The notes: generated by a model not told the origin, from the sequence alone. Positions 7,520 to 26,762 are shown, numbered from the stretch's first letter. The stretch is DNA of 64,000 bases from Escherichia phage 308Ecol101PP (OR062945.1), one strand, 5' to 3'. Numbers and translations are program-made.

Positions 7520-7547
7520 GCCCCTTCCGAAAGGTTGGGGCTTTTTT
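7520..7547 (+). terminator. Rho-independent terminator
   Basis: GCCCC-TTCCGAAAGGTT-GGGGC followed by TTTTTT. Confidence 0.7.
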
Positions 7548-7548
7548 G

Positions 7549-7556
7549 TATAAATA
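7549..7556 (+). promoter_or_regulatory. Late promoter motif TATAAATA upstream of CTS-protein gene 7592
   Basis: Exact 8-mer immediately after terminator 7520. Confidence 0.4.
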
Positions 7557-7591
7557 TAGTAAACAATAAACCTACTTTCTAAGGACCATCA

Positions 7592-8218
7592 ATGTATACT
7601 TTTAATGAATTTTTAGCCGAAACGGAAGTAATCACCGAAGCCGGTGTACGTATGACAAAAGAGAAATGGCAAGCTGCTTACGATGCTATTTCTGGTACAA
7701 AAACTAGTACAGAGTTTTTCAAAAACGTTCAAGCCATGTATGGTATCGACACTTCCAGCCAAAAAGAATATTACAGAGCTTCTAAAGCATTCAAAGATAT
7801 TGTTAGTGGCGGTGTTTCTGCTAAATCGGGTTCGCCTAAAGTAAAACCTGCTCCTACCGTTCCTAAACCTGCGACCCCTAAAGCAATAGCAAAACCTGAG
7901 CCTAAGCCGGAAGTAAAAGCAACTCCTAAAGCTCCTGCTCTTAAGTTTGATACTTCTAGCCTGGAAAAAAAATATAAACAACTATCTTCGCTTGTTCGTG
8001 ATATTGAATCCGATACATCTTCACTCGTTCGTGAATTCAACAGTCTTCGTAATGGCCAACATATCAACAACCTTGATACCCCAGACCTTTATCGTCTTTA
8101 TTTGACTATTGAAGGTTTGAAGTACACTCAACCACTTCATGATGAGATTAAAGAAAAACTTCGTCAGGCAGGTCGTTTGGCTGCTGACGCTGCTCAGTAT
8201 GCAAAAACTCGTAAGTAA
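7592..8218 (+). CDS. Capsid-targeted protein with Pro/Lys-rich linker
   Basis: Starts MYTFNEFLAETEV (CTS-like); PKVKPAPTVPKPATPKAIAKPEPKPEVKATPKAP low-complexity linker; TATAAATA late-promoter motif at 7549. Confidence 0.7.
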   Translation: MYTFNEFLAETEVITEAGVRMTKEKWQAAYDAISGTKTSTEFFKNVQAMYGIDTSSQKEYYRASKAFKDIVSGGVSAKSGSPKVKPAPTVPKPATPKAIAKPEPKPEVKATPKAPALKFDTSSLEKKYKQLSSLVRDIESDTSSLVREFNSLRNGQHINNLDTPDLYRLYLTIEGLKYTQPLHDEIKEKLRQAGRLAADAAQYAKTRK

Positions 8219-8223
8219 AGAAT

Positions 8224-8243
8224 GGGGACTTCGGTCCCCTTTA
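8224..8243 (+). terminator. Rho-independent terminator with UUCG tetraloop
   Basis: GGGGAC-TTCG-GTCCCC then TTTA. Confidence 0.6.
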
Positions 8244-8270
8244 GGGGGTCTATAACTTACTGAAAAAGTT

Positions 8271-8299
8271 GTTTACTTCTTCCCTAGATGTGTTACTAT
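8271..8299 (+). promoter_or_regulatory. Early promoter (GTTTAC, 17 nt spacer, TGTTACTAT)
   Basis: -35/-10 spacing as sigma70 consensus; weak IR. Confidence 0.5.
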
Positions 8300-8327
8300 A
8301 GTCCTATTAAAACATGAGGAGAATATT

Positions 8328-8831
8328 ATGAGTCTTTACACTGAACTGAATAAAAAATCTGAAGAATCCGCTGAAACTATTTTTAAAAACGTGCAAAAGC
8401 GTATTTTAGAAAAGATGTATAACACTGCAGCTAAAGGTGAAAAATCTTGCCGGTTTCCGATGAGGTGTTCTTCCGATTTATGCGCAAATACTATTGAATG
8501 GCTGGAAAGTGAAGGTCTTACGGTAGAGAAAAACCCGGCGTCTTCTATTGACAGTGAATCATATATTAGTATTTCTTGGGATAAATCAAGGGTAGAAGAG
8601 AAAGATGGTGATTGGGTTGTAGATGTTAAAACTTCTGATGGCGGACGTTCTGTTGAAGTTTCAGCTGTAGTTAAAGGTACCCACGAACAAAGGACTTGGG
8701 GATGGGGTGGTGAAGAAAAAGAAATTGTTCTTAGTGTGATTGCCAGGTCAACTAGTAATAAAATTGCACAAAGCATCATTGACGCTGCAATTGCTGAAGC
8801 AGAAAAAATTTGCAAAATTAAAAATAAATGA
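8328..8831 (+). CDS. Hypothetical protein
   Basis: Promoter cassette 8271 and SD GAGGAGA upstream; 167 aa. Confidence 0.65.
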   Translation: MSLYTELNKKSEESAETIFKNVQKRILEKMYNTAAKGEKSCRFPMRCSSDLCANTIEWLESEGLTVEKNPASSIDSESYISISWDKSRVEEKDGDWVVDVKTSDGGRSVEVSAVVKGTHEQRTWGWGGEEKEIVLSVIARSTSNKIAQSIIDAAIAEAEKICKIKNK

Positions 8832-8860
8832 TGTACAAACGCCAAGGACGGTGTTACTAT
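8832..8860 (+). promoter_or_regulatory. Early promoter (TGTACA -35, GTGTTACTAT -10)
   Basis: 17 nt spacer. Confidence 0.45.
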
Positions 8861-8889
8861 AGACCTATCAACTACAGAGGAGAAACAAA

Positions 8890-9117
8890 ATGGCTACAGT
8901 TAGTATTGATGTCGTTGATTATGAATACACCGAAGAAGTTATTCGCAGCCGTCACCCTGAAGTTCGTATCGATTCAGTCCAAGATTCCAAGTTTTGGACA
9001 ACCGAGCTTAATCTGAGTGGTCCTTATGAAGCTGTTAAGAAGTTCATGGTTGAAGAATACTGCGAAGGCATGCACCCCGAAGACGCCGAGTTTTATGTCA
9101 ATTTGATTAAAAAATAA
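8890..9117 (+). CDS. Hypothetical acidic protein
   Basis: Promoter 8832, SD GAGGAGA; 75 aa. Confidence 0.6.
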   Translation: MATVSIDVVDYEYTEEVIRSRHPEVRIDSVQDSKFWTTELNLSGPYEAVKKFMVEEYCEGMHPEDAEFYVNLIKK

Positions 9118-9125
9118 TTTACAAA

Positions 9126-9161
9126 CTCTTGAGAGCAGAGTATAATGCTCTCGTTGGATAA
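9126..9161 (+). promoter_or_regulatory. Early promoter cassette with IR GAGAGC / GCTCTC around TATAAT
   Basis: TTTACA -35, TATAAT -10 at 9150-9155; near-identical copy at 39400. Confidence 0.6.
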
Positions 9162-9187
9162 TAAACCACCAATTGAAAGGTAATAAT

Positions 9188-9781
9188 ATGAACACACTGA
9201 AGAAACTTGTTGAATTCATCCGCACTAAACTTGGTACTGCTATGGCTAAAAATCTGACTGTCGAAGAACAGTATAACGCAGCTGCAGATAAGTTGATTAC
9301 CCAAATCAAAGAACTAAAAACGGCTTCTGTTAAATCTATTAATGAAGAAAAACGTATTCGCGAACTTGTTATTGAAAAGAATAAGCAAGCCGCTTCTAAG
9401 GAACGTGAAATTCGTAAGCTCTTGGCTGAAGGACAAGATGTTACCATGCATGCCAAGCTTGGTCTTCTGTATCGTCGAACTGCCGAACAACTTAATACAA
9501 AAGCTGACGGGTACGCTGCTATGCGAATTGAAATTGCTCGTAAGGTGGTTGAACTTGATGATGCTCGTCAGAACCTGGCAATCAAACTCGAATACATTCG
9601 TGAAACTCGAGCAGCCAATGCCCTTGGTATCTCTACGGCTGATGATGTAATTGAAATCGCTGCACTGACTAAGGTTGATATCGAAGACACTCTGACTCGT
9701 GTTGAAACGTTCAATGGCACTCCAGCTGGTGTCGAAACCACTTCTGCTGATGTACAAGAATATATTAACTCTTTGAAATAA
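9188..9781 (+). CDS. Coiled-coil protein (PspA/IM30-like?)
   Basis: Promoter cassette 9126; long heptad-rich helical sequence; terminator hairpin at 9790. Confidence 0.65.
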
Positions 9782-9789
9782 AATAATAC

Positions 9790-9812
9790 GGAGGACTCCG
9801 GTCCTCCTTTTG
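9790..9812 (+). terminator. Rho-independent terminator
   Basis: GGAGGAC-TCCG-GTCCTCC then TTTTGG. Confidence 0.65.
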
Positions 9813-9830
9813 GATAATAAAGGAGTTAAC

Positions 9831-10427
9831 ATGCGAAACCAAAATAATGATATTGACTCAATGTTCGAAGAGTTCCGAGATAAGGTAAATCCACCTACGT
9901 CTTTAGTTGATTCATTACGATATGTTGCAACTGGACGTAAATGGTACTGGTCGTCTTCTTATGAGACAACTGAATATGCAAATAACCGAAAATCTTTATT
10001 AGCCCCAGGTATTATGATTCATGATATCGGAGCTATTGCTAAACTAGTTGCAGACCATGATATTAGATTCACTGATTTCATTGCTCCTACGTGGTCTGTT
10101 TGTTGTTTAAACACTGAATGGGACTACATCAGTGAACGTTCAGATGATTACGTAGGCTTTAGAGATAAGCTCTTAAGGTCTAACATGTTTTATATCGATA
10201 CAGAAGTTCTAGTCGATAATAAAAAATATTACTTTACGTTAATCGTCGATTCTGAAACTATGTATGAAGGCAAGCCTTTGCTTAAAAGAGTTGATGCTTT
10301 AAGTGCTATTGATGCGCTTTATGAAACTATGGTTGTTAGTCCTAATTTCACTAACAATTTAATCCTTGAGCAATTTATTATGGAATGTAGAGAATATGTC
10401 AAAGCCAACCCTATACATGCCAATTAA
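9831..10427 (+). CDS. Hypothetical protein; C-terminus carries QFIMECREY junction motif
   Basis: SD AGGAG then ATG 9831; ends overlapping next gene. Confidence 0.65.
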   Translation: MRNQNNDIDSMFEEFRDKVNPPTSLVDSLRYVATGRKWYWSSSYETTEYANNRKSLLAPGIMIHDIGAIAKLVADHDIRFTDFIAPTWSVCCLNTEWDYISERSDDYVGFRDKLLRSNMFYIDTEVLVDNKKYYFTLIVDSETMYEGKPLLKRVDALSAIDALYETMVVSPNFTNNLILEQFIMECREYVKANPIHAN

Positions 10428-10791
10428 GCCCTGGGCATACGAATACAAACGTAAATTAATTCCTAATGAAGTGTTGTTTGGTCCTATTTTAGCTTTAGCA
10501 TTTTTAATCTTTATGATTATAGGAGCTATTTTAGATTCCAATAAAGTTATATCGTCTGATGCAGCATTTTCATTAATGTTCGTCGCACCACTTATTGTAC
10601 CGTTTTTATTAATGCCTATTAATTGGGTAGGATATTGGCACCAAGGCCGTCATCACAGAGCCCGATTAAGAGAATGGAAAGTTCAGTGCGCAAAAGCCCA
10701 AGCTCAATATGATGAAGCTGTTAAAAAGTATGAATATGAAGAAGCTATGGAATTCGTTAAGGAAATAAGATGCAAAAGCCTCAACTCTTAA
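10396..10791 (+). CDS. Small membrane protein, FIKECR-tail family
   Basis: ATG directly after GAATGTAGAGAAT junction motif; two hydrophobic segments; C-terminal ...MEFVKEIRCK. Confidence 0.55.
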   Translation: MSKPTLYMPIKPWAYEYKRKLIPNEVLFGPILALAFLIFMIIGAILDSNKVISSDAAFSLMFVAPLIVPFLLMPINWVGYWHQGRHHRARLREWKVQCAKAQAQYDEAVKKYEYEEAMEFVKEIRCKSLNS

Positions 10792-11129
10792 CCGTATGGC
10801 CGTCTCTTGGTGAGAACATTCTAATTTTTATTATGAGTATTGGCATGGGATTTGCCTTTGGATTAGTTGGATTTCTTATTGACGGAGTTGTGTTAGGATT
10901 TATAGGGAATACAGGTGGATTCACAGACCAATGGCAGGACCTAAGATACACCCAAGCTTTTGCATCTATCGCATCATTTTGTACTGTAGTCTATTTTTAC
11001 TACGATTTTATAAACCATAACAAGAAAAATAAAAAGGTTTACGCTTCTCAAATGATTAGTTATAATGAACTCCTAGCTAGACGTGAAAATGAAACAATAG
11101 AAAACTTTATTAAGGAATGTAGAAAATGA
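10770..11129 (+). CDS. Small membrane protein, FIKECR-tail family
   Basis: Hydrophobic segments; C-terminal ...ENFIKECRK; ATGA overlap with downstream gene. Confidence 0.65.
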   Translation: MQKPQLLTVWPSLGENILIFIMSIGMGFAFGLVGFLIDGVVLGFIGNTGGFTDQWQDLRYTQAFASIASFCTVVYFYYDFINHNKKNKKVYASQMISYNELLARRENETIENFIKECRK

Positions 11130-11431
11130 GTAAGATTATTGAAATTAAAGTACCAGAGTTTAATGATGCTAAATCCGCTTCAGATGCAATTTATAAACTT
11201 CTGAATCAAGCTGAACGTATCGAAGAAGAAGCAACAAAGATCGCGGACCAATATGCTGTATCATTTTCTGTAGGTGATTATGGTAGCGGTCGTACTTATT
11301 ATCCTAAGGGTGAAATTGTATCCCAGTGGATGAAAGATGAAATTGAAAATAATGGTGGTGATGTTAAACGTGAAGGTAATGGTTACGTTATTACTGAAGG
11401 TGCTTGGGTTTCGTCTTCTGCGATGTGCTAA
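11126..11431 (+). CDS. Small protein, tandem paralog 1 (C-terminal GAWVSSSAMC)
   Basis: First of three adjacent ORFs sharing C-terminal G-W-x-S/A-S-S-x-x-C tail. Confidence 0.65.
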   Translation: MSKIIEIKVPEFNDAKSASDAIYKLLNQAERIEEEATKIADQYAVSFSVGDYGSGRTYYPKGEIVSQWMKDEIENNGGDVKREGNGYVITEGAWVSSSAMC

Positions 11432-11440
11432 GGAATCATT

Positions 11441-11713
11441 ATGTCTAAAGAACAAACCGAACTGGCTGAAGCCGTAGCAAAAATCTATGCAGCTATTGAG
11501 GCTGCCAAAGAAATTGCTGATAAACAAAACACAACATTCAACTTGTATCCAGCTTATGGTATGGGTGGAACCTATCATTCACCCGGACAACTTAAAGCCG
11601 ATCTTGAACGTTGTACAAAAAACGGCTATGCCGAATGGGCTGACGTTTACCAATACGACTACAACCTGAGCCTCGAAACTGGTGGTTGGATTGCATCTTC
11701 TCACACTTGCTAA
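11441..11713 (+). CDS. Small protein, tandem paralog 2 (C-terminal GGWIASSHTC)
   Basis: SD AAGGAA then ATG; shared C-terminal tail. Confidence 0.65.
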   Translation: MSKEQTELAEAVAKIYAAIEAAKEIADKQNTTFNLYPAYGMGGTYHSPGQLKADLERCTKNGYAEWADVYQYDYNLSLETGGWIASSHTC

Positions 11714-11722
11714 GGAAACCAT

Positions 11723-11920
11723 ATGTCTCGTGAATTAGATTGTGCTGTACGTACGGCAGTAGCTGCTCTGGAAAACCTGTTCCAAATTGCAACAGAAGAA
11801 CGCGAAGAAGTTACATTGTGGATTGAAGATAACGCAGGTCTGAATCTCCAGGACGCGATCTCATTATCCAATAATAGCATTACTGTTCAAGGCTGGGTAT
11901 CATCTAGTTATTCTTGCTAA
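11723..11920 (+). CDS. Small protein, tandem paralog 3 (C-terminal QGWVSSSYSC)
   Basis: SD AAGGAA then ATG; shared C-terminal tail. Confidence 0.6.
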   Translation: MSRELDCAVRTAVAALENLFQIATEEREEVTLWIEDNAGLNLQDAISLSNNSITVQGWVSSSYSC

Positions 11921-11924
11921 AACA

Positions 11925-11963
11925 GTTTACAACAAGATAGGGCTATGTTATAGTAGTCCTATC
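11925..11963 (+). promoter_or_regulatory. Early promoter stem-loop cassette (PeSL-like)
   Basis: GTTTAC; IR GATAGGGCTA / TAGTCCTATC. Confidence 0.6.
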
Positions 11964-11982
11964 AAATTAAATGGAGTCCACA

Positions 11983-12222
11983 ATGATTTATTACGAAAGT
12001 ATCGGAACCAAAGTGGTTGGTAAAACCATTACTCGCGAAAAGTTTGCAAAGATATTCGATATGCGTTATAAAAAATCTGAACACAAAGGCATCCGATTCG
12101 AAGATGCGCACTGTACAATTTGTCCTTATAATGAAGACATAAACGGTACAATCGTTCCATTGGTAGAGGCTTCACATGATGACCTCTGGGATGAATATAA
12201 TATCGCATGTCGTGAAATTTAA
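11983..12222 (+). CDS. Hypothetical protein
   Basis: Promoter cassette 11925; SD GGAG before ATG 11983 (alternative start 11971). Confidence 0.6.
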   Translation: MIYYESIGTKVVGKTITREKFAKIFDMRYKKSEHKGIRFEDAHCTICPYNEDINGTIVPLVEASHDDLWDEYNIACREI

Positions 12223-12246
12223 GTTAATTAATCCGAGGAAAATATT

Positions 12247-13203
12247 ATGATGTTAGTTATTGGTTCTCGTGCACTTCACTATCATGGTCTTATTGATTCT
12301 AACGCTATCAAAAATAGTGATTGGGACTTTATTGCAGACCAAGGTTCTTGGAATGCATTCAAAAATCAAATGATGGGTGTATATGTTCATCAAGATAACC
12401 CTGATGTCCAAGTTTTCAAATGCTTCCATAATGGACGCGAAACTCATTTTGAAGCATATATTGTTCCGGCAATCACTAATGTCCGTGAATTAGTCGGTGA
12501 ACTCACTCCTGAAGATTTCACGTCTTCTTATGACCTTTTAAAATACGCCAAGAAAAATTTGACTAAAGACCGTTTGAACGGGTTTTACTGGGCAACTCCT
12601 GAGATATGTCTTGCAATTAAGATGTCTCATCGTTTCAAGAAAAATAATCCATTCTTTTTAAAGACTATGAACCATATTCAGTATCTTCGTGGTAAAGGTG
12701 TTACACTGAACGATGAACTTACTGAAATTATGCTGAAACGCCAGAAAGAAACCTTGAACTATGCTCACCCGATTCTTGACACTTCTAAAAGTGCGTTCTT
12801 TAAAGATGACATCTATACATATGACCATGATACTATTCATGAAGCCATTGCACTAACAGACCGTCCGGCTTATACGTTTTATATGAAAGACGGTTCTGAA
12901 GTAATGACCTCACGCGAGAAGTTTGAATCACTTCCGGAAATGGTCAAATTGGCCGGTGTATATGAAGAAACATGTGTACTAGCGTTAGAACGTTCTCAGA
13001 TTCCTAATGGCTTTGAAATCCATCCTCGTGATAGTTTTATGATGGCATTAGAAAAGGTCTGTACTTCAATCACATCAGGCTGGTTCCGTGAGTATGCCTG
13101 GGAGAACTATGGCAAAGTAGTAAGTATGTATCAAAGCTTAGGACACGACGATTACGTCAAGCGTTTCAAACAAAATTTTCATATGGTAAAACCTTTCAAA
13201 TAA
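12247..13203 (+). CDS. Hypothetical protein (318 aa)
   Basis: Long ORF with SD GAGGAAA; no fold recognised. Confidence 0.7.
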   Translation: MMLVIGSRALHYHGLIDSNAIKNSDWDFIADQGSWNAFKNQMMGVYVHQDNPDVQVFKCFHNGRETHFEAYIVPAITNVRELVGELTPEDFTSSYDLLKYAKKNLTKDRLNGFYWATPEICLAIKMSHRFKKNNPFFLKTMNHIQYLRGKGVTLNDELTEIMLKRQKETLNYAHPILDTSKSAFFKDDIYTYDHDTIHEAIALTDRPAYTFYMKDGSEVMTSREKFESLPEMVKLAGVYEETCVLALERSQIPNGFEIHPRDSFMMALEKVCTSITSGWFREYAWENYGKVVSMYQSLGHDDYVKRFKQNFHMVKPFK

Positions 13204-13215
13204 TTTCACCAAACT

Positions 13216-13253
13216 GTTTACAAGGTCTGTAGTTGTTGATACTATAGACCTAT
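13216..13253 (+). promoter_or_regulatory. Early promoter stem-loop cassette (PeSL-like)
   Basis: GTTTAC; IR GGTCTGTAG / CTATAGACC. Confidence 0.55.
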
Positions 13254-13282
13254 CAAAACAAATGAGTGAATGGAGATACAAA

Positions 13283-13483
13283 ATGACTACTTTGAATAAA
13301 CGTTTCGGTAAAGCTAAACCTGGCTGTGCAGCAGAACGTCGTTACATTTTCGCTCAGTTAGAAGATGTAGAGTATCAGATTAATCAAGTTCACATTACTG
13401 GCATCGAGCCTATGTGTGGCCTTGAAGCTCTTCGTGAAGTTCGTGACGGGTATCGTCGTGATATCGAAGAAATGTCAAAATAA
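13283..13483 (+). CDS. Hypothetical protein
   Basis: Promoter cassette 13216; SD GGAGA before ATG 13283 (alternative start 13262). Confidence 0.55.
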   Translation: MTTLNKRFGKAKPGCAAERRYIFAQLEDVEYQINQVHITGIEPMCGLEALREVRDGYRRDIEEMSK

Positions 13484-13522
13484 GTGTACAAACTGATAGG
13501 GCTATGTTATAGTAGTCCTATT
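13484..13522 (+). promoter_or_regulatory. Early promoter stem-loop cassette (PeSL-like)
   Basis: GTGTAC; IR GATAGGGCTA / TAGTCCTATT. Confidence 0.55.
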
Positions 13523-13541
13523 AAAACATGAGGAGAATAAT

Positions 13542-13847: not shown

Positions 13848-13848
13848 T

Positions 13849-16566: not shown

Positions 16567-16980
16567 ATGACTCGTATCAATTTAACACTTGTTTCTGAAC
16601 TGACCGACCAACATCTTATGGCTGAGTATCGTGAATTACCACGCGTATTTGGTGCAGTCCGTAAACATGTTCAAAACGGTAAACGTGTAAAGGATTTTAA
16701 AATCTCTCCAACATTTATCTTAGGCACAGGTCACGTAACATTCTTTTACGACAAACTCGAATTTTTACGTTTACGTCAAATCGAGCTAATCGCCGAATGC
16801 TTGAAACGTGGTTTCAAAATCAAGGACACATCTGTCCAAGATATTTCCGACATCCCTGCCGAATTTCGTAATAATTATGTCCCGTCCGAAGCGTCCATTG
16901 CGATAAGTCAAGCACGCTTAGATGAAAAAATTGCTCAGCGCCCGACTTGGTACAAATACTATGGTAAATCAATTTACTAA
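16567..16980 (+). CDS. denV: Endonuclease V (pyrimidine dimer DNA glycosylase)
   Basis: [35 protein letters not shown]...[10 protein letters not shown] matches T4 DenV. Confidence 0.95.
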
Positions 16981-16986
16981 GGAAAA

Positions 16987-17247
16987 ATGAAAATGTATCA
17001 AGAATTTATCGCTGAAGCAGATGCCAAAGGTCCTAAATTTAAAGTTAAAGCTTTCATTGGTGATGCGGAAGACTTTGGCTCATTAAAACGTAATGGGTAT
17101 TCTTTCTTAGGTGGCGATGGTAAAGAAATCAACACCTATGCAAAACGTAGTGAAATTGCTTATGTTGTAGCAAGCCCTAAAGTAGATGTTGACGATATTG
17201 GATACGATTTTAACAACTTTGGAATTATTTCTGGCGGTAAAGCTTAA
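16987..17247 (+). CDS. Internal protein (ipII/ipIII-like), capsid-targeted
   Basis: Starts MKMYQEFIAEA (CTS leader); adjacent to denV as T4 ipII/ipIII. Confidence 0.65.
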   Translation: MKMYQEFIAEADAKGPKFKVKAFIGDAEDFGSLKRNGYSFLGGDGKEINTYAKRSEIAYVVASPKVDVDDIGYDFNNFGIISGGKA

Positions 17248-17250
17248 ATT

Positions 17251-17280
17251 GTTTACGCTTAAGTATTAATATGGTATAAT
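17251..17280 (+). promoter_or_regulatory. Early promoter (GTTTAC, 18 nt spacer, TATAAT)
   Basis: Consensus hexamers upstream of CTS gene 17311. Confidence 0.55.
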
Positions 17281-17310
17281 TACTCTATCAAAACAAATAA
17301 GGAAACAAAA

Positions 17311-17640
17311 ATGAAAACGTATCAAGAGTTTATCACTGAAGTTACATTATCTGCGGAACAGAAAGCTGCTATCGAAGAAGGTAAAAATCCCAAAGTAACA
17401 TATAAAGTAAATGGTAAAGGCGTTTTTGATGGCTTGGTTCAAGACCCTGAATTGAAAAAAGCTCTTTCTAAAACTAATGCGTACTTTGCTCCTAAATTTA
17501 ACGCAGCCGGTGTACTTATTGGATTGGATGTATTCAACTCTAAAGGTGTTCTATCTAATGCCTTTGGTTATGCCGCTAACAAAATTACCAAAGCCGAATG
17601 GGAATCCAATACCAAACAAGCTCAAAAGCCTAGAGTATAA
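17311..17640 (+). CDS. Internal protein (ipII/ipIII-like), capsid-targeted
   Basis: Starts MKTYQEFITEV (CTS leader); promoter 17251. Confidence 0.65.
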   Translation: MKTYQEFITEVTLSAEQKAAIEEGKNPKVTYKVNGKGVFDGLVQDPELKKALSKTNAYFAPKFNAAGVLIGLDVFNSKGVLSNAFGYAANKITKAEWESNTKQAQKPRV

Positions 17641-19229: not shown

Positions 19230-19240
19230 GGAAATTCCTT

Positions 19241-19722: not shown

Positions 19723-19726
19723 AGTA

Positions 19727-19777
19727 GTTTACTTCTCCTCTAGTTGTGTTACTATAGACCTGTCAACTAGAGGAGAA
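19727..19777 (+). promoter_or_regulatory. Early promoter stem-loop cassette; 14-bp perfect IR pairing anti-SD with SD
   Basis: GTTTAC; TTCTCCTCTAGTTG / CAACTAGAGGAGAA flanking TGTTACTATAGACCTGT. Confidence 0.65.
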
Positions 19778-19783
19778 ATCAAA

Positions 19784-20242: not shown

Positions 20243-20250
20243 AGGTAAAC

Positions 20251-20793
20251 ATGAGAAAAGCACTACTCGCTGGTCTATTTGCTCTTTCATTATCAGCACA
20301 TAGCTCCGAGCATACTTTTAGTAATGTCCAACTCGATAACTTGAATTATGCTTATCAGTTTGGGGAACAGTTTTCTAAGGACGGAAAATTTAAAACGCAT
20401 GAAAATATGCATAAGAAAGGACTTGGATACATAATGGCCGCAATACTATGGCAGGAATCATCTGCCGGTATTAATCTTAAAGATAAGAAAGGTCACCATG
20501 CGTATGGAATGTTCCAAAATTATCTACCAACAATGAGGGCAAGAATTAACCAGCTTGGTTATAATATGACTGATGCCCAAATTAAGAAAATGCTATCTAA
20601 GCGGTCTAATTCAGCCAGATGGGCTTATATCGAATTTTCTTATTGGTTAAATATACATAATGGGGATATAAGAAAAGCTATATCCTCATATAATGCGGGA
20701 TGGAAGACAAGTGCTGGAAGTAAATATGCTTCTGAAGTCCTAGAAAAGGCTAATTACCTTAAATCAAACAAACTACTGGAAATAAAAGAATGA
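20251..20793 (+). CDS. Secreted lytic-transglycosylase-like (SLT-domain) protein
   Basis: N-terminal signal peptide MRKALLAGLFALSLSAHS; ...AILWQESSAG...AYGMFQ resembles the SLT catalytic E-S ... G-x-x-Q motif. Confidence 0.6.
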   Translation: MRKALLAGLFALSLSAHSSEHTFSNVQLDNLNYAYQFGEQFSKDGKFKTHENMHKKGLGYIMAAILWQESSAGINLKDKKGHHAYGMFQNYLPTMRARINQLGYNMTDAQIKKMLSKRSNSARWAYIEFSYWLNIHNGDIRKAISSYNAGWKTSAGSKYASEVLEKANYLKSNKLLEIKE

Positions 20794-21137
20794 CCAAAAT
20801 GTTGGCTTTAATAGTTGGCTTGGTTTCATTTAACGCTCTTGCTAATACTACATATACTGATGTAACGGAGTATACAAACAGAACAGCGTCTGATTATTGT
20901 GGTAAAAGTCAAGAGTGTAAAGTAGATTTTTCACAAAAATTGTTATATGCGTATAAAGACGGAGAAAAAGATGGGGCGTCTAGTAGGTTCAAGGCGTCTA
21001 CCTTAATTAAAAGATACTATAAAAAATGGCAAATATTAGAATGCTCGGTGGCGGAACCTAAAGATAAGGCAGCATGCAATTCTATGGTGGACCGTCTAGT
21101 TGACTCTTATACTAGAGGACTTGCAGCAAGTGATTAA
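20790..21137 (+). CDS. Secreted small protein
   Basis: Signal peptide MTKMLALIVGLVSFNALA; ATGA overlap. Confidence 0.6.
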   Translation: MTKMLALIVGLVSFNALANTTYTDVTEYTNRTASDYCGKSQECKVDFSQKLLYAYKDGEKDGASSRFKASTLIKRYYKKWQILECSVAEPKDKAACNSMVDRLVDSYTRGLAASD

Positions 21138-21597
21138 AAACTATATCAAGGGCGATATTGTCGCCCTGTTTTCTAAAGGTAATAATATCGCTCATGGGTG
21201 TAATTGTTTTCATACAATGGGCGCCGGCGTGGCAGGACAATTAGCAAAGGCTTATCCAAAAATTCTGGAAGCCGATAAACTTCAAACCGAATTTGGAGAC
21301 GAGTCTAAACTCGGGACTTATTCGGTTTATGAAAAATATTTTAAGACCCATAAAGCTTATTGCTTTAATCTTTATACACAGTTTGAGCCTGGACCTAATT
21401 TTGAGTACTATGCTTTAATGAATTGTATAATAGAATTAAATGAATTCGGAAAGAATAAGATAACAAAGCCTGTACTTTATATGCCAAGAATTGGTGCAGG
21501 TATCGGTGGCGGAAACTGGGATGTCATCGAAGAGATTTTAGATACGTATTCCACTAAACTAGAAATTGTGATTGTTGATTGGGAACCATTATTATGA
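21100..21597 (+). CDS. Macro-domain protein (ADP-ribose binding / hydrolase candidate)
   Basis: GDIVALFSKGNNIAHGCNCFHTMGAGVAGQL and YMPRIGAGIGGGNW resemble macro-domain Gly-rich loops; start uncertain (ATG 21100 overlaps upstream gene; GTG 21130 possible). Confidence 0.6.
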   Translation: MTLILEDLQQVIKNYIKGDIVALFSKGNNIAHGCNCFHTMGAGVAGQLAKAYPKILEADKLQTEFGDESKLGTYSVYEKYFKTHKAYCFNLYTQFEPGPNFEYYALMNCIIELNEFGKNKITKPVLYMPRIGAGIGGGNWDVIEEILDTYSTKLEIVIVDWEPLL

Positions 21598-21806
21598 ATA
21601 TACATTATCCACATCCATATGACCCAAAGAATAAGGCAGTAATTATTCGTCAATGGGAACGCATTTGTCGTACCAAATGTCCAATTAATAGTCCACATGA
21701 TGTAGATAAAGACTACATCGGAACATTCGTTGAATATACCTTTATTGATAAGAAAGGCCGTAAACAACATGTAGAAGAATATTGCTTAAAGGTGTCATGG
21801 CTATGA
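21594..21806 (+). CDS. Hypothetical protein
   Basis: ATGA overlap at 21594. Confidence 0.5.
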   Translation: MNIHYPHPYDPKNKAVIIRQWERICRTKCPINSPHDVDKDYIGTFVEYTFIDKKGRKQHVEEYCLKVSWL

Positions 21807-22009
21807 GTCAAACAAAAATTCTTACAGGTGCTAAATGCGAAAAATGCGAATGGCCTGTAGTTTTTGCTTTATGCAATAACGAAATGGCTTGTGATTTTGA
21901 TTATTGGTGTTACTGTTCGAACAAAGGTTGTAGCAATCATAAAGGTGAAGGGTTTTACTCAGGATTTTACCCTTACCCGGATTTCGTTAAAGAAGGTGAA
22001 CCTAAATGA
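21797..22009 (+). CDS. Cys-rich small protein (possible Zn-binding)
   Basis: CEKCEW...CNNEMACDFDYWCYCSNKGCSNHKG. Confidence 0.5.
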   Translation: MAMSQTKILTGAKCEKCEWPVVFALCNNEMACDFDYWCYCSNKGCSNHKGEGFYSGFYPYPDFVKEGEPK

Positions 22010-22188
22010 AATTAACTAAAGAAGAGAAAGCTAAACTGTTCGAACTTATCCATGACCTATTGGATGAACAAGCAGCCACCAATGCGTATGATGAATATGC
22101 TCCTTTAACAGATGAAGAATATCAAGCATTGTTGGAATCATTTGACAGGAAAGAACAAGAACTTATTGACTACGTGAATTCACTATAA
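22006..22188 (+). CDS. Hypothetical acidic protein
   Basis: ATGA overlap; 60 aa. Confidence 0.5.
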   Translation: MKLTKEEKAKLFELIHDLLDEQAATNAYDEYAPLTDEEYQALLESFDRKEQELIDYVNSL

Positions 22189-22197
22189 GGGACTCTT

Positions 22198-22779
22198 ATG
22201 GCTAGTTTAATTTTTACATATGCCGCTATGAACGCTGGTAAGTCTGCTTCATTACTTACTGCCGCACATAACTATAAAGAACGTGGCATGGGTGTATTAG
22301 TTCTTAAACCGGCTATTGATACTCGCGATTCAAAAGGTGAAATAGTCTCTCGTATTGGTATTCGTCAGGACGCCAATATAATTACAAAAGACATGGATAT
22401 CTTTGAATTCTATAAATGGGCTGCAGCACAAAAGGATATTCATTGTGTATTTGTTGACGAAGCTCAGTTCTTAACTACTGAAAAGGTGTATCAACTTAGT
22501 CGTATTGTTGACGTATACAATGTGCCGGTAATGGCATATGGACTACGAACAGATTTTAAAGGTAATCTATTTGAAGGTTCTCAAGCATTAATGGCTATTG
22601 CCGATAAGCTTGTTGAACTTAAAGGTGTCTGTCATTGTGGTAAAAAGGCCACAATGGTAGCTAGAGTCACGGAAGACGGACTTCCAATTACGGATGGCAG
22701 TCAAATTGAAATTGGTGATACCGATAGATATGTGTCATTATGCCGGAAGCATTGGAATGATTTGACAGGGTTGTTATAA
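22198..22779 (+). CDS. tk: Thymidine kinase
   Basis: MASLIFTYAAMNAGKSASLL P-loop; ...VDEAQFL...CHCGKKATM... typical TK. Confidence 0.95.
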   Translation: MASLIFTYAAMNAGKSASLLTAAHNYKERGMGVLVLKPAIDTRDSKGEIVSRIGIRQDANIITKDMDIFEFYKWAAAQKDIHCVFVDEAQFLTTEKVYQLSRIVDVYNVPVMAYGLRTDFKGNLFEGSQALMAIADKLVELKGVCHCGKKATMVARVTEDGLPITDGSQIEIGDTDRYVSLCRKHWNDLTGLL

Positions 22780-22782
22780 ATA
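22775..22782 (+). promoter_or_regulatory. TATAAATA motif overlapping tk stop (possible late promoter)
   Basis: Exact 8-mer 25 nt upstream of ATG 22807; could be chance in AT-rich DNA. Confidence 0.25.
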
Positions 22783-22806
22783 CTAATATCTAACCAAGAG
22801 GTATAT

Positions 22807-23019
22807 ATGCAGCAATTAAACGAAAGACAACTTCGTAATCTTACTGTAACCCAATTGGATGAAATCCGAAGAGAATTAGGACATTCTATTTCTCATTTAA
22901 ACGAGGATATCCGTCAAACTGGTTCTAAAGCTGATTATACACGCAAGCGCAAGCTGGAAAAATACCTCACAGATGTTAAGGCCGTCCAAAGGCGAAAAAT
23001 AAATACTGGCCAAAATTAA
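22807..23019 (+). CDS. Hypothetical protein
   Basis: SD GAGG; TATAAATA motif at 22775. Confidence 0.55.
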
Positions 23020-23031
23020 CAGGAGGCCTAT

Positions 23032-23334
23032 ATGGCCTTAAGAGCGATAGCTGTCATGGCGATGCTGGGGTTTTTTGCAGCAACAACTCCTATCGTTGGT
23101 ACTGCGTACACTGACCCATATTTTGATAACTTTATGGAATCAGGGATTAAAAACGTATATACTTTGTTTGAAATTCAAAATGTCGAGAATTCTGAAAAAT
23201 TCTATAAGTATATGGCAAAGCATTACAAAAATAGCCCCTGTGATGATGCATTTGAATGTCATGAACAAGGCATAAAAACTGCCAGACAATTTGCCGAGTT
23301 CATGAAAATAAAATTAGAGCCTACATCTATCTAA
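23032..23334 (+). CDS. Secreted/periplasmic small protein
   Basis: Signal-peptide-like MALRAIAVMAMLGFFAATTPIVGTA; followed by terminator 23341. Confidence 0.6.
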   Translation: MALRAIAVMAMLGFFAATTPIVGTAYTDPYFDNFMESGIKNVYTLFEIQNVENSEKFYKYMAKHYKNSPCDDAFECHEQGIKTARQFAEFMKIKLEPTSI

Positions 23335-23340
23335 TTTAAT

Positions 23341-23369
23341 AGCCCCTTCCTTATGGTTGGGGCTTTTTT
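23341..23369 (+). terminator. Rho-independent terminator
   Basis: AGCCCC-TTCCTTATGGTT-GGGGCT then TTTTTG; near-copy of the 7520 terminator. Confidence 0.7.
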
Positions 23370-23379
23370 GCATTTAGCA

Positions 23380-23431
23380 GTTTACTTCTCCTCAGGTTGT
23401 GTTATAGTAGACCTTACTTACTAGAGGAGAA
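23380..23431 (+). promoter_or_regulatory. Early promoter stem-loop cassette
   Basis: GTTTAC; TTCTCCTC / GAGGAGAA IR; -10 TGTTATAGT. Confidence 0.55.
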
Positions 23432-23435
23432 CGTT

Positions 23436-23615
23436 ATGTCACGTAAAGAAAAAATTTCTAAGTTAATGTTTTTGATTGAAGAGTACGCTAATGCGGTATC
23501 TGATTGGGAAAATGCTCATGGTTGCGAAGATGGAGACATCGACATTAACAGAGCTATGAAAAAGATGGCAGATGCCCACACCGAATTGCAAATGTATGTT
23601 AACGAGATTATGTGA
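23436..23615 (+). CDS. Hypothetical protein
   Basis: Promoter cassette 23380, SD GGAGA then ATG 23436. Confidence 0.55.
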   Translation: MSRKEKISKLMFLIEEYANAVSDWENAHGCEDGDIDINRAMKKMADAHTELQMYVNEIM

Positions 23616-23622
23616 GGATATT

Positions 23623-23790
23623 ATGCTTTACGATTATACTGGAAAATCTGAAGACGGTGTACTTGAACTTTTACCTGAAAGCGCTGAAGATGATGATATG
23701 GTGGTGATATATTGTGTTGGTTGTCAATCAATGCATGATGAAATTTTTAAACGTGAACCAAGAAACTGTTGGCACAGGAGCATGAGATGA
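23623..23790 (+). CDS. Small protein, MLYD paralog 1
   Basis: MLYDYTGKSEDGVLELLPE...C..C; SD GAGGA. Confidence 0.5.
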   Translation: MLYDYTGKSEDGVLELLPESAEDDDMVVIYCVGCQSMHDEIFKREPRNCWHRSMR

Positions 23791-23881
23791 TTTATTATCT
23801 TGAACCTTGGGCTTGGTTAACAATGGCTGTAGGACCTGTTTTAATTGGTTTATTCTTTTCATGGTTGGCGAGGAAACTGTA

Positions 23882-24097
23882 ATGTTATATGACCCAAGCG
23901 GTTGTTCTGAAGATGGTGTGATTGTTCTGGAGCCTGAGCATCCAGTTGGTGATGTATATCGCACCGTTGAAGTATGTGAATGTAATTTCGTTGAAGGTAA
24001 TACTGGCGGAATTTCCATTGAGCAAGAAGATGATGTTATTTACCTGGATGCAAGCCAAGTAGAAGCTCTTTATAGCATTTTAAAACATAATCGGTAG
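23882..24097 (+). CDS. Small protein, MLYD paralog 2
   Basis: MLYDPSGCSEDGVIVLEPE...C.C; SD GAGGAAA. Confidence 0.5.
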   Translation: MLYDPSGCSEDGVIVLEPEHPVGDVYRTVEVCECNFVEGNTGGISIEQEDDVIYLDASQVEALYSILKHNR

Positions 24098-24137
24098 TTT
24101 ACGTCTTGGTAGGACTATGTTATAGTAGTCCTACCAA
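24097..24137 (+). promoter_or_regulatory. Early promoter stem-loop cassette (PeSL-like)
   Basis: GTTTAC; IR TTGGTAGGACTA / TAGTCCTACCAA. Confidence 0.6.
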
Positions 24138-24154
24138 AACAAATGGAGAACAAA

Positions 24155-24265
24155 ATGAAACTTTTGCTTATCGCTTATGTTGTAGTACAATACAATTATC
24201 CGATGTTTACTTATAACATGGTAAACGGCATAGTGAATCTTATTGAAACGAGTATGGTAAAATGA
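24155..24265 (+). CDS. Very small hydrophobic ORF (36 aa)
   Basis: Directly downstream of promoter cassette 24097 with SD GGAGAA; ATGA coupling to next ORF; below ORF-track threshold. Confidence 0.3.
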   Translation: MKLLLIAYVVVQYNYPMFTYNMVNGIVNLIETSMVK

Positions 24266-24441
24266 CCCGTGAACAAGCTAATAAATTGATGGACCTTATT
24301 CGTGACTTGCGCGAAGCTGATTCAGATTTGAATGATGTAGCTTATCATGCGGTAAATGATAATGTAGACTTTTATGAAAATCAGGTTGATGCTTGTCAGA
24401 ATGCTTTGGTGAATTTTGTTGAAACTTTAATTGGTGAATAA
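24262..24441 (+). CDS. Small acidic ORF (59 aa)
   Basis: MTREQANKLMDLIRDLREADSDL...; fills the gap between 24265 and 24443; below ORF-track threshold. Confidence 0.4.
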   Translation: MTREQANKLMDLIRDLREADSDLNDVAYHAVNDNVDFYENQVDACQNALVNFVETLIGE

Positions 24442-24442
24442 T

Positions 24443-24973
24443 ATGAAAACTGTAATTGAAACAACCGAGTTGTTTGGTGATTTATGTATCGAAAAACGTG
24501 GTTATGTGTATGTTCTGACACAAGAAGATGATGCTGCTACTATTCTTCCTATGGAACTGGACAAGATTTTGAAACTCAATCCACCGGGTCATGCATCTGT
24601 AATTAACATTAATGAAGACCTTCAAGTTCGTTTTTATCATGGACTTTATAGTGGGGTTAATATCGAAACTGAAGACGAATGTTTTTCTATTAATAATTGG
24701 AAAACATTCGTCACTAAGGTGAAAGAATTCGTGGAATCTGAAACAGCCAAAAAGGCCAAACTTCAATGGGCTAAATGCCGTAATGCTTTTATTACAAATC
24801 AGGACCGCCCTGACTATACAACAGTCCTAGGCGTTAATCCTTCTTATGAAGATGGTGATGTCGTAGTTATTCGTCAAATTGATGACCTTCGACAACATAT
24901 CATTACATTAGACAAAGATGAAGCAGTTGCTCTTAAAGCTTATCTTGATTCTATTATCCCGACTTTGAAATAA
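24443..24973 (+). CDS. Hypothetical protein
   Basis: ATG 24443 two nt after upstream stop; 176 aa. Confidence 0.65.
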   Translation: MKTVIETTELFGDLCIEKRGYVYVLTQEDDAATILPMELDKILKLNPPGHASVININEDLQVRFYHGLYSGVNIETEDECFSINNWKTFVTKVKEFVESETAKKAKLQWAKCRNAFITNQDRPDYTTVLGVNPSYEDGDVVVIRQIDDLRQHIITLDKDEAVALKAYLDSIIPTLK

Positions 24974-24982
24974 GGAATTATT

Positions 24983-25456
24983 ATGATTATCAATGAAAAC
25001 TCTTGGCACTTTAAAATTTATGCCGCGTTCAATAGTACATGGAATCGCCCGAAAACATTATGTGCTTATTTTTGGAAAACGTTAATCCCGGTATTGTCTG
25101 TTTCAATTATTGGATTTGCGATTTTAGCAGCAGTCGTAATCATTGGCCAGGAAATTTTAACTAAATTCTTTGTTTTTAGCAGTCTATGGACATTAGTTCC
25201 AGCCTCAATTGGTGTAGGCATTTTAATTGTAGCAGTCATGGCTTTTATTGCTACCGGGTTGGTAATTGGTCCGTCTTGGTTGTTAGACAAATATAACGAC
25301 AGAAAATATTATAAAGAAATTGAGCTCATTGCACAAAACCAAGAACGAATTAAAAATGGACTTGCGCCTATTGAACGTAAGAAATCATTAATAGGCGAAT
25401 ACCTTAAAGCTCGTAAAGAAAAAGTCTGTCCTACTCTTGAATATAAGGCTAAATGA
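24983..25456 (+). CDS. Membrane protein
   Basis: Multiple hydrophobic segments followed by a basic C-terminal helix. Confidence 0.65.
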   Translation: MIINENSWHFKIYAAFNSTWNRPKTLCAYFWKTLIPVLSVSIIGFAILAAVVIIGQEILTKFFVFSSLWTLVPASIGVGILIVAVMAFIATGLVIGPSWLLDKYNDRKYYKEIELIAQNQERIKNGLAPIERKKSLIGEYLKARKEKVCPTLEYKAK

Positions 25457-26442
25457 TGAAAACAATTATGAAAGGCTACTTTGGTAGTCACCTTTATGGA
25501 ACGTCTACTCCTGAATCTGACGTCGATTTTAAAGAAATTTATGTCCCTCATGCTCGTGATATCTTGACCGGTAACGTTAAAGAACACATGAGCAAGAACA
25601 CGAATAACACATCTTCTAAGAACACAAAAGACGACGTGGACCATGAGTTGTATAGTCTCAAATATTTCTTTAAACTAGCTGCGGACGGTGAAACTGTCGC
25701 ATTAGATATGCTTCACACTCCACAAAGTTTAGTAGTTAAATCTGATTTGCCTGATGTATGGAAGTATATTCAAGATAACAGGTCTCGTTTCTATACCACT
25801 AACATGAAATCTTATTTAGGGTACGTCCGTAAGCAAGCTTCTAAATATGGTGTCAAGGGTTCTCGACTGGCTGTTCTTCGTCAAGCCCTTAAACGTTCTA
25901 ATGAATGGGGACAATACTTTGATAATGGTGCAGTAATTCGTTTATCACATATGAAGAATGTTCTGCCTGTAGGTGAATTTGCTTCATGGGTTGAAACCGA
26001 AAACGAGAAAACAGGTAAGCAAACATTCTATAATCTGTTAGACCGTAAATTCCAAGACACGTTAACCAATAAAGAGTTCAATGCCATCCTTGTTAAACTA
26101 GAAGAGAACTATGGCGAACGTGCTCGTAAAGCAGAAGCTAACGAAGGTATTGACTGGAAAGCATTGAGTCATGCATGCCGTGGTGGACTTCAATTATTGG
26201 AAATTTACAAAACAGGCGACCTGGTTTACCCACTTCAGGATGCTCCATTTATTCTCGATGTTAAGCTTGGTAAACATACTTTTAAAACTGTACAAGAATT
26301 CCTAGAAGATATCGTTGACCAAGTTGAACATGCGTCAGAACAAGCTGCCAAGAACGGTATGCAACAAAAAGTAGATATGAGTTTCTGGGATGACTTCCTT
26401 GAACAGGTCTATCTCGAAAATCATAATTCTTACTATAAATAA
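25453..26442 (+). CDS. Pol-beta-superfamily nucleotidyltransferase-fold protein (candidate)
   Basis: N-terminal GSHLYGTSTPESDVDF fits the G-S-x(9-13)-D-x-D NTase signature; 329 aa. Confidence 0.6.
   Translation: MMKTIMKGYFGSHLYGTSTPESDVDFKEIYVPHARDILTGNVKEHMSKNTNNTSSKNTKDDVDHELYSLKYFFKLAADGETVALDMLHTPQSLVVKSDLPDVWKYIQDNRSRFYTTNMKSYLGYVRKQASKYGVKGSRLAVLRQALKRSNEWGQYFDNGAVIRLSHMKNVLPVGEFASWVETENEKTGKQTFYNLLDRKFQDTLTNKEFNAILVKLEENYGERARKAEANEGIDWKALSHACRGGLQLLEIYKTGDLVYPLQDAPFILDVKLGKHTFKTVQEFLEDIVDQVEHASEQAAKNGMQQKVDMSFWDDFLEQVYLENHNSYYK
26434..26441 (+). promoter_or_regulatory. TATAAATA motif (possible late promoter)
   Basis: Exact 8-mer 33 nt upstream of ATG 26474; could be chance. Confidence 0.25.
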
Positions 26443-26473
26443 GTAGATAAATAACCATTAACTTGAGGTAAAT

Positions 26474-26737
26474 ATGAAAAAATTGGTAATTGGTTTATTC
26501 GCAGTAATGATGGCATTCTCTGTTGGTGCTACCACGGGTGCAGCCGGCGGTAACCAGTCTTCTGGGCCTTCTAATGGTTCGGTAAATGCATCACATTCTC
26601 AGGGTATTGAGAACATTAAATCAAGCTATATTAATAGCACGGCCGGACAAGCAACTGAAGCATGGTCAAAGGGACGAGTAGTTACTCGCTCCGTATTCTG
26701 TGATATGCCTAATTATGTTGCTAAGTGCGATAAGTAA
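26474..26737 (+). CDS. Secreted small protein
   Basis: Signal peptide MKKLVIGLFAVMMAFSVGA; terminator at 26742. Confidence 0.6.
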   Translation: MKKLVIGLFAVMMAFSVGATTGAAGGNQSSGPSNGSVNASHSQGIENIKSSYINSTAGQATEAWSKGRVVTRSVFCDMPNYVAKCDK

Positions 26738-26741
26738 ATGT

Positions 26742-26762
26742 GGGGACCTTCGGGTCCCTTTA
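26742..26762 (+). terminator. Rho-independent terminator with UUCG tetraloop
   Basis: GGGGACC-TTCG-GGTCCC then TTTA; near-copy of the 8224 terminator. Confidence 0.6.

Follow-up and report, generated by a model that had tools for sequence, protein, structure and literature searches.

Dispersed terminator-like hairpins at the borders of variable single-gene cassettes in the early region of a Mosigvirus genome

Genes and hairpins at the locus

The subject of this work is two pairs of short hairpins, termed H1 (copies H1a and H1b, at 7520 and 23342) and H2 (copies H2a and H2b, at 8224 and 26742), in a 64,000-nucleotide (nt) stretch of Escherichia phage 308Ecol101PP (OR062945.1), which at its full length is called the window. 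Megablast and the taxonomy lines of the matching records assign the window to Mosigvirus, the RB69-like T-even phages, with PNJ-9, PNJ-6, ST0 and JS09 as its closest matches at about 98% identity. Early transcription runs along its plus strand, and the region concerned extends from an internal-protein/tRNA cluster through e, regB, tk and rI towards nrdD. Comparison with relatives reveals two sequence families, recombinant joints, conversion tracts and presence/absence polymorphisms, and we consider it likely that transcript-end hairpins of the two families close single-gene cassettes, exchange sequence and serve as crossover points, in a shuffling of the type ascribed to the promoter-early stem-loops (PeSLs) of RB49 and phi1.

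The features discussed here are collected in Table 1. The stretch that precedes H1a contains long blocks identical to T4 71171-70908, as seen from a MAFFT alignment and the T4 annotation, and is thus the counterpart of the T4 stable RNA genes rnaD and rnaC. ARAGORN and Rfam called the two tRNAs only and left this homologue uncalled, Rfam even at E ≤ 1 around 6600-7600; in some relatives it is annotated as small hypothetical coding sequences (MM02 2293-2421 and 2427-2573). The gene between H1a and H2a encodes a protein of 208 amino acids (aa), and a related-locus search with this protein returned three IMG/VR loci only. Downstream of the promoter at 23380 lies a mobD.2a-like open reading frame (ORF), whose ATG is at 23436.

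Table 1. Hairpins, promoters and genes discussed in the text, in window coordinates
Feature	Position	Strand	Details
tRNA-Met and tRNA-Arg	6698-6852		upstream of the rnaD/rnaC homologue
Homologue of T4 stable RNAs rnaD and rnaC (species 2 and 1)	7216-7510	+	MAFFT alignment with T4 71171-70908
H1a	7520-7547	+	hairpin GCCCCTTCC-GAAA-GGTTGGGGC, 7520-7541; T6, 7542-7547; intrinsic-terminator type
TATAAATA, T4 late-promoter consensus	7549-7556	+	1 nt past the T tract, 36 nt before the next ATG
208-aa ORF, phrog_2280	7592-8218	+	function unknown; cassette between H1a and H2a
H2a	8224-8248	+	GGGGAC-TTCG-GTCCCC, 8224-8239; tail TTTAGGGGG, 8240-8248; without T tract
Early promoter, T4-type	8271-8299	+	-35 GTTTAC, 8271-8276; -10 region, 8294-8299
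rI, lysis-inhibition gene	23032-23334	+	phrog_1246 and annotations in relatives; closed by H1b
H1b	23342-23369	+	hairpin GCCCCTTCC-TTAT-GGTTGGGGC, 23342-23363; T6, 23364-23369
Early promoter	23380-23408	+	GTTTAC ... TATAGT; begins 10 nt past the H1b T tract
87-aa ORF, phrog_2243	26474-26737	+	variable cassette closed by H2b
H2b	26742-26767	+	GGGGACC-TTCG-GGTCCCT, 26742-26759; tail TTTAGGGGG, 26759-26767
Early promoter	26790-26818	+	GTGTAC ... TATTAT
Weaker H2-family member	48471-48490	+	AATGGGAC-TTCG-GTCCCATT, then TGGAGTATAAT; repeat search, family D12
Weaker H2-family member	60918-60945	+	AAGGAGAC-TTCG-GTCTCCTT and TCGGGG; repeat search, family D12

A first-pass annotation of the sequence had described the hairpins at both pairs of sites as near-identical dispersed terminators. 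The H1 copies are indeed found on the plus strand, the second at 23342 and not, as stated there, at 23341. Over 29 nt (7520-7548 and 23342-23370) they read GCCCCTTCC-GAAA/TTAT-GGTTGGGGCTTTTTTG, with 25 of the 29 bases identical; the arms are the same in both copies, including a TT/TT internal mismatch, and the loops alone differ. A search at up to three mismatches finds these two window sites and no other, against 0.00 expected (none in 100 shuffles), and among the 136 pairs that can be formed from the 17 terminator-like hairpins of the window the H1 and H2 pairs have the top alignment scores (24 and 19; mean -4.3, standard deviation 6.8).

Folding energies of -16.0 kcal/mol for H1a (z -3.7) and -15.8 kcal/mol for H1b, together with a stem-loop that is followed directly 3' by T6, make H1 a plausible intrinsic terminator. 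Its positions are of the kind expected of one, as H1a follows the rnaC homologue, with no protein gene, and H1b begins 8 nt past the rI stop codon, and GenBank records of relatives annotate rho-independent terminators at the H1b site (SA79RD) and at the H1a site (G53). An automated terminator scan missed H1 because of the internal mismatch. In T4 an orthologous hairpin, GCCCCGACC-GAAA-GGTTGGGGC-TTTTT, stands about 50 nt after rnaC, which makes H1a the predicted terminator of the tRNA/rnaD/rnaC cluster. The T4 hairpin agrees with 7520-7547 in position, GAAA loop, 3' arm and upstream rnaC flank; it differs in its fully paired stem, with G.U plus A-U in place of the U.U/U.U of the window, and in that neither a cassette nor TATAAATA lies downstream.

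In the window this TATAAATA element follows H1a, and there is no GTTTAC promoter between H1a and the ATG at 7592. It also follows H1 at the heads of cassettes in phage LF82-31 and at the loci L019, L003 (twice), L239, L240 and L250 (L numbers are our labels for loci in other genomes and contigs), and the coupling of H1 to the late-promoter consensus is seen in eight cassettes of three genera. That cassette-opening H1 copies are followed by this consensus is one of three minor new points.

The sharing of sequence between the hairpins at 8224 and 26742 was likewise confirmed: the 15-nt 3' part of H2 has two matches at up to two mismatches, against 0.03 expected. H2b differs from H2a by one additional C:G pair beside the loop, and the repeat search adds the two weaker family members of Table 1. 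In all four a C:G pair closes the UUCG loop and the stem is Watson-Crick paired; the stems show compensatory changes (GGGGAC/GTCCCC, GGAGAC/GTCTCC, GGGCC/GGCCC). H2a and H2b, with folding energies of -12.0 and -12.9 kcal/mol, start 5-6 nt past stop codons and 22-23 nt upstream of a -35 GTTTAC or GTGTAC. Whereas the label of terminator given at first pass suits H1, with its T6 and some -16 kcal/mol, it is doubtful for H2 because a U tract is lacking; H2 is more likely a 3'-end barrier, a stabiliser or a pause site, and at best a weak terminator. The terminator scan reported here only a minus-strand reading (8239-8224) and an alternative hairpin (26753-26769), and H2b is annotated as a terminator in SA79RD. 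With six matches to the exact hairpin-plus-tail pattern in IMG/VR, H2 is a narrow family.

The UU(U)AGGGGG tail of H2 is found at 8240-8248, 26759-26767 and 60938-60945, at L004:3642 and in L219. Pairing of this tail with the C-rich 3' arm of its own hairpin is possible, which gives two mutually exclusive folds, and the tail is kept across genera despite the compensatory changes in the stem. In the 60918 member the G run abuts the -35 GTTTAC at 60943, and it also abuts GTTTAC in L219. Stable C(UUCG)G hairpins are well known from T4 intercistronic mRNA (Tuerk et al. 1988, summarised in PMC4371310), and H2 resembles them in its UUCG loop with C:G closure, its short GC stem and its place between cistrons of early transcripts. 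It differs in the tail that can pair with its own 3' arm, a description of which was not found in the part of the literature examined, and we consider the conserved G-run tail a new point.

The H1 stem is by no means confined to this phage group. Its exact arms (GCCCCTTCC-N4-GGT(T/C)GGGGC) have 95 matches listed in IMG/VR, all but a handful of them followed by a T tract, and when their flanks are clustered with the loci of further scans, about 44 distinct contexts emerge, of which 40 contain at least one copy followed by a T tract; because IMG/VR is redundant these figures are rough. The contigs concerned range from 35 to 62% GC, and T4-like contigs of 167-180 kb carry two to three copies each. 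The loop is free to vary, also between orthologous sites. Among 98 matches listed for a fixed 3' arm, the mismatching TT is found in 44, GG in 13, GA in 11, AG in 9 and AA, the form that pairs perfectly, in 4; these class frequencies, like those for the degenerate pattern GCCCCNNCC-N4-GGNNGGGGC, are rough and hold among the matches listed. The recurrence of the UU/UU-mismatched H1 stem in about 44 unrelated phage contexts is a third new point, and there is a small chance that the T.T mismatch has a function of its own. A host origin of H1 was rejected, as its commonest form, with a TTTC loop, occurs in one of 5426 complete E. coli genomes. An old tandem duplication that would have left H1 copies beside paralogous genes was rejected as well, since rnaC, phrog_2280, rI and the mobD.2a-like ORF are unrelated.

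Such a wide distribution raises the question of whether the copies are independent terminators of optimal design (GC stem, GNRA or UUCG loop, U tract) that became alike by pure convergence, with no exchange between them and no role in rearrangement. The number and diversity of the contexts, GC contents and loops just described would agree with this, as would the wide use of C(UUCG)G as a stable motif in T4 mRNA (PMC4371310) and the fact that the H1 copies of the window differ in the loop and have nothing in common beyond 29 nt. We nevertheless regard convergence as unlikely. The first-pass annotation had allowed that the copies might prove unrelated beyond a generic GC stem and T tract, yet the TT/TT mismatch of H1 and the UUUAGGGGG tail of H2 (TTTAGGGGG in the window copies), neither of which is needed for a hairpin, are common to them, and the comparison with relatives in the next section adds to this.

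Insertion, conversion and replacement at the hairpin sites

In LF82-31 the rI site contains a 588-nt insert. Window segments 22700-23368 and 23331-23715 map on either side of it, which amounts to a 38-nt duplication comprising H1. In the left H1 the rI flank leads into a GAAA loop and TTTTTGTATAAATAT, the type of the 7520 site, and in the right H1 a GAAA loop leads into the resident TTTTTTGCATTTAGCAGTTTAC early promoter. Copies that are both chimeric are the expected product of crossovers inside the arms and would fit the entry of a cassette in the order loop-3' arm-late promoter-gene-5' arm-loop, or the integration of a circle with one H1. The insert encodes a 186-aa ORF (phrog_2143), which is present after rI in 23 phage records (LF82-31 and 22 others) at 97-100% identity. 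Homologues of this ORF (74-76% aa identity) lie directly after the rnaC-site H1 in L019 and L003/L004, contigs that measure about 170 kb and are arranged like JS98; L003/L004 have an H1-type hairpin on either side of it.

Changes confined to the hairpin itself point in the same direction. At the rI site of AV118 the hairpin has GAAA/GGTCGGGGC where MM02 has TTAT/GGTTGGGGC, that is five differences in 22 nt (TTAT to GAAA and GGTT to GGTC), and all five variant bases equal those of AV118's own rnaC-site copy, while the flanks are 94-99% identical to other Mosigvirus relatives. This supports a conversion tract without insertion or deletion (indel) between hairpins 15 kb apart. In the IMG/VR loci L005 and L090, a 26742-type stem occupies the 8224 site, a change for which three coordinated indels are needed and which left the flanks as they were; this supports a conversion at H2. 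Moreover, each genus has its own H1 stem variant that is common to its copies: GCCCCTTCC/GGTTGGGGC in the paralogous copies of Mosigvirus, GGCCCTTCC/GGTTGGGCC with a compensatory C:G to G:C change at both H1 copies of the JS98-like L003, and, in the Tequatrovirus-like L239, L240 and L250, two GCCCCGACC copies about 550 nt apart, which flank a phrog_2280 cassette. T4 has one hairpin only, whose left flank is that of copy 1 and whose right flank is that of copy 2 of this L239 type. A third conserved site of H1 type (flank TAGTGTTGATAGCCAAC...) occurs in many T-even contigs and is absent from this window. Convergence would account neither for the five linked differences by which AV118 equals its own other copy, nor for the chimeric H1 copies that flank the LF82-31 insert, the genus-specific stem variants in both paralogous copies or the H2b-type variant at the H2a site of L005 and L090.

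Whole modules are also exchanged. In MM02 and AV118 the segment 7563-8264, with the 208-aa gene and H2a, is replaced by a 154-aa allele of the same PHROG, about 25% identical, which is closed by an H1-type hairpin with a TTAT loop; the joints are at 7562 and 8265 and the flanks are 92-95% identical. G53 has kept the gene, and there 8219-8264 alone (joints at 8218 and 8265) is replaced by the exact reverse complement of H1, GCCCCAACC-ATA-GGAAGGGGC, which lies at L002:2238-2258 where the window has H2a. The hairpin module was therefore either inverted or rebuilt from opposite arms. Homology with all three phages resumes at 8265, and in all three H1 replaces H2 at the 8224 site, as a reverse complement in G53. 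On the rI side T4 has an unrelated hairpin, AGTCTCC-TTCG-GGAGACT-T7, and then a promoter homologous to the one at 23380. The L019 cassette ends with yet another terminator, GCCCGC-ATT-GCGGGC-T6, and is thus bounded by two different hairpins.

The 87-aa ORF is absent in AV118 and LF82-31, and AV118 has a 255-nt insert flanked by a duplicated promoter segment (26809-26832). In PECP20 the ORF (L006:20919-21107) contains a premature stop (TGG to TAG), and judging from these alleles the accessory gene is decaying or dispensable. Like the 208-aa ORF and the 186-aa ORF of the rI site, it varies, by presence, absence or replacement, among phages with flanks of 92-98% identity. Cassettes are hence gained, lost and swapped at the hairpin sites, and the modular exchange that had been suggested from the sequence of this one genome is supported by the LF82-31 insertion, by the occurrence of the same gene at the other H1 site, by the AV118 conversion and by the replacement of H2 by H1. 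Comparison with four relatives over 5.2-28.9 kb yields 16 structural differences; of their 32 boundaries at least 13 fall at early promoters and 4 at H1 or H2. The difference at 13222-13496, which is bounded by promoters at 13216 and 13484, is an example of the former.

Cassette shuffling at transcript ends

Composite PeSL elements, about 50 per genome, have been described in RB49 and phi1, where terminator and promoter activity were shown and mini-circles between flanking PeSLs were detected; their crossovers mapped to one of three parts of the element, namely loop, AT-rich region or promoter (Arbiol et al. 2010, PMC2839356). The model was later extended to T4/PST and KVP40/nt-1, where stem-loops immediately precede the promoter and a version with a middle promoter, PmSL, was noted (Comeau et al. 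2014, PMC4122927). The elements of the window resemble PeSLs in that a stem-loop and a sigma70-like early promoter share the space between a stop codon and the next ATG (23342/23380-23408, 8224/8271-8299 and 26742/26790-26818), with the stem-loop just upstream of the promoter as in PST; in that they lie in hyperplastic regions, beside small ORFs, of unknown function, in which close relatives differ; and in that indel and replacement joints fall within the elements and leave chimeric ones (LF82-31, MM02, AV118, G53, T4 versus L239). The first-pass idea that the hairpins are reused together with promoter cassettes thus holds for these three sites and fails for 7520, where the late-promoter consensus takes the place of an early promoter. 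In substance this earlier interpretation is right, and it has already been published as PeSL modular shuffling (PMC2839356, PMC4122927).

There are differences from these systems as well. The present elements belong to Mosigvirus, a genus outside both studies, and the recombining repeat is the terminator hairpin itself, with only 25-29 bases in common. As to the conservation over about 100 bp that is seen among PeSL copies, the picture here is mixed: the H2 sites with their promoters align over some 96-102 nt at 76-80% (8212-8307 and 26731-26832, each against the other site in relatives), the H1 pair over 29 nt only. The stems are unlike the G(n)-loop-C(n) of RB49 and the AGNA-loop-TCNT consensus of PST. 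Late promoters, whose consensus here follows the cassette-opening H1, go unmentioned in PMC2839356 and PMC4122927, which deal with early and middle promoters only. Finally, the mini-circle and reporter support belongs to the RB49-type work, while our comparison is one of genomes alone.

But how would such short repeats move genes without disturbing transcription? We envisage that, at each of the four sites, a hairpin marks the transcript end and closes a single-gene cassette of the variable early, or hyperplastic, region. H1, with its 9-position stem, tandem U.U mismatch, tetraloop and U6, would act as an intrinsic terminator, and H2, a very stable C(UUCG)G hairpin that has the UUUAGGGGG tail and lacks a U tract, as a barrier, a stabiliser or at most a weak terminator. 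Homologous recombination by the phage's own machinery would keep the copies alike, and because of this likeness they could serve as crossover points, the hairpin arms, T tracts and adjacent promoters offering short patches of identity. Two processes would be at work, gene conversion between dispersed copies and the insertion, excision or replacement of promoter-gene-hairpin cassettes, possibly via small circular intermediates. Each recombinant would have its transcription punctuation intact, and the units would stay transcriptionally insulated. The termination activity, the enzymes and the circular intermediates in this scheme are those that we infer.

Morons of lambdoid phages and integron cassettes are comparable, in that single genes with their own transcription signals are inserted between resident genes that remain undisturbed. 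For morons illegitimate recombination is the presumed route of insertion, and their GC content is different; integron cassettes require an integrase and attC sites. The cassettes described here, in contrast, come without a recombinase, are of phage-like composition and have their joints in short common regulatory sequences.

Several points weigh against the hairpins being crossover points. The base-by-base comparison comprises five Mosigvirus genomes only; the terminator function of the hairpins is a prediction, and H2 at 8224 and 26742, where TTT is followed by AGGGGG with no run of five or more T, departs from the form of an intrinsic terminator. Both families are tiny (two H1 and 2+2 H2 copies in 64 kb), the identical stretches in H1 are very short (9 + 16 nt), and since exact H1 stems occur in about 44 unrelated contexts functional selection could also contribute to their identity. 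In L051, which is without the L019 cassette, the junction is a 9-nt T-tract microhomology, TTTTTTATA, after two different hairpins; selection for intact punctuation, and not hairpin homology, may therefore decide which junctions survive. At the left end of the deletion of 26441-26734, found in AV118 and LF82-31, there is no clear repeat. In addition, the co-location of boundaries with promoters and hairpins is weak evidence, because an indel that spares genes can only be intergenic, and the intergenic DNA here consists almost wholly of promoters and hairpins.

The last three observations are what one would expect if selection were merely a filter, with illegitimate or microhomology recombination occurring anywhere, with survivors that end after a terminator or at a promoter, and with a likeness of the hairpins that stems from each incoming gene bringing its own terminator of a common type. 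We hold this to be improbable, since it leaves unexplained the conversion tracts without indel (AV118 rI site; 8224 site of L005 and L090), the joints within 9-nt arms and the chimeric state of both LF82-31 copies, as well as the homogeneity of stem variants within genomes. It is on the chimeric copies, the conversion tracts and the concerted stem variants that the case for exchange rests.

A dedicated structure-specific system, in which a nuclease or recombinase would recognise folded H1 DNA in the manner of integron attC or of endonuclease VII and the cassettes would be truly mobile, seems to us very unlikely. It would make sense of a mismatch that is kept while the stems change compensatorily (GCCCC/GGGGC to GGCCC/GGGCC) and that, among the matches listed with the 3' arm fixed, outnumbers perfect pairing by 44 to 4, of the near absence of H1 from E. 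coli genomes and of the exact hairpin inversion in G53, and a stem-loop-binding protein was speculated on by Arbiol et al. (PMC2839356). However, the cassettes contain one small ORF of unknown function each and no recombinase, the position of the junction is not fixed (5' arm, 3' arm, T tract or promoter), all but a handful of the listed H1 copies are followed by a U tract, as in ordinary terminators, and short homologies are known substrates of the T4 recombination system (discussed in PMC2839356). There is, by the same analogy, a slim chance that H1 is a horizontally spreading, structure-recognised cassette-targeting module, as a phage counterpart of attC or a substrate of a cruciform-cutting or recombination enzyme, in which case hairpin-T6-TATAAATA would be the cassette head.

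Crossover at transcript-end hairpins, if it operates as we propose, offers a base-level example, from a genus outside the original papers, of the way in which accessory genes of T-even phages can be moved while transcription stays intact. Natural genomes thereby lend support to the PeSL model, which is extended here to terminator hairpins coupled to late promoters; the current understanding of phage genome evolution is unchanged. In practice, hairpin elements of this kind may help to predict where Mosigvirus genomes used in therapy differ and where engineered inserts would be tolerated or lost.

Other repeats in the window

Many early promoters of the window contain a strong, near-perfect inverted repeat that brackets the -10 hexamer, e.g. 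TGATAGGACTATGTTATAGTAGTCCTATCA, with folding energies of -14 to -22 kcal/mol. Such repeats lie at 4524-4550, 4880-4909, 5212-5241, 11936-11963, 13223-13251 and 13494-13523, and further at 19736-19774, 24103-24140, 28273-28300, 39106-39139, 45105-45127 and 61386-61424. As the repeat brackets the -10, the promoter spacer therefore pairs with the first transcribed bases. The commonest placement of the stem-loops in RB49 PeSLs, between -35 and -10 or overlapping the -10 (PMC2839356), is the same. One promoter-plus-hairpin unit of 40 nt, AATAATTTACAAACTCTTGAGAGCAGAGTATAATGCTCTC, occurs at 9113-9152 and, 30 kb away, at 39395-39434 with 95% identity (family D11), and AV118 has a 98% match to the 9113-9152 unit at a distant position (L008:32450-32498).

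Tandem paralogous small genes, with products beginning MKTYKEFI, have common leaders and promoters (4572-4601, 4929-4958, 16980-17009 and 17304-17333), and repeats of these paralogues also span 16948-17017 and 17272-17341. PECP20 is without one such unit (window 17017-17307), which is consistent with unequal exchange between the repeats. Finally, a coding segment, RPTKRQLRKAKR..., recurs at the 3' ends of three ORFs (33466-33520, 34070-34124 and 62092-62146; families D8 and D13), its third copy directly before an early promoter, and these repeats may be ends of paralogous genes that adjoin promoter cassettes.

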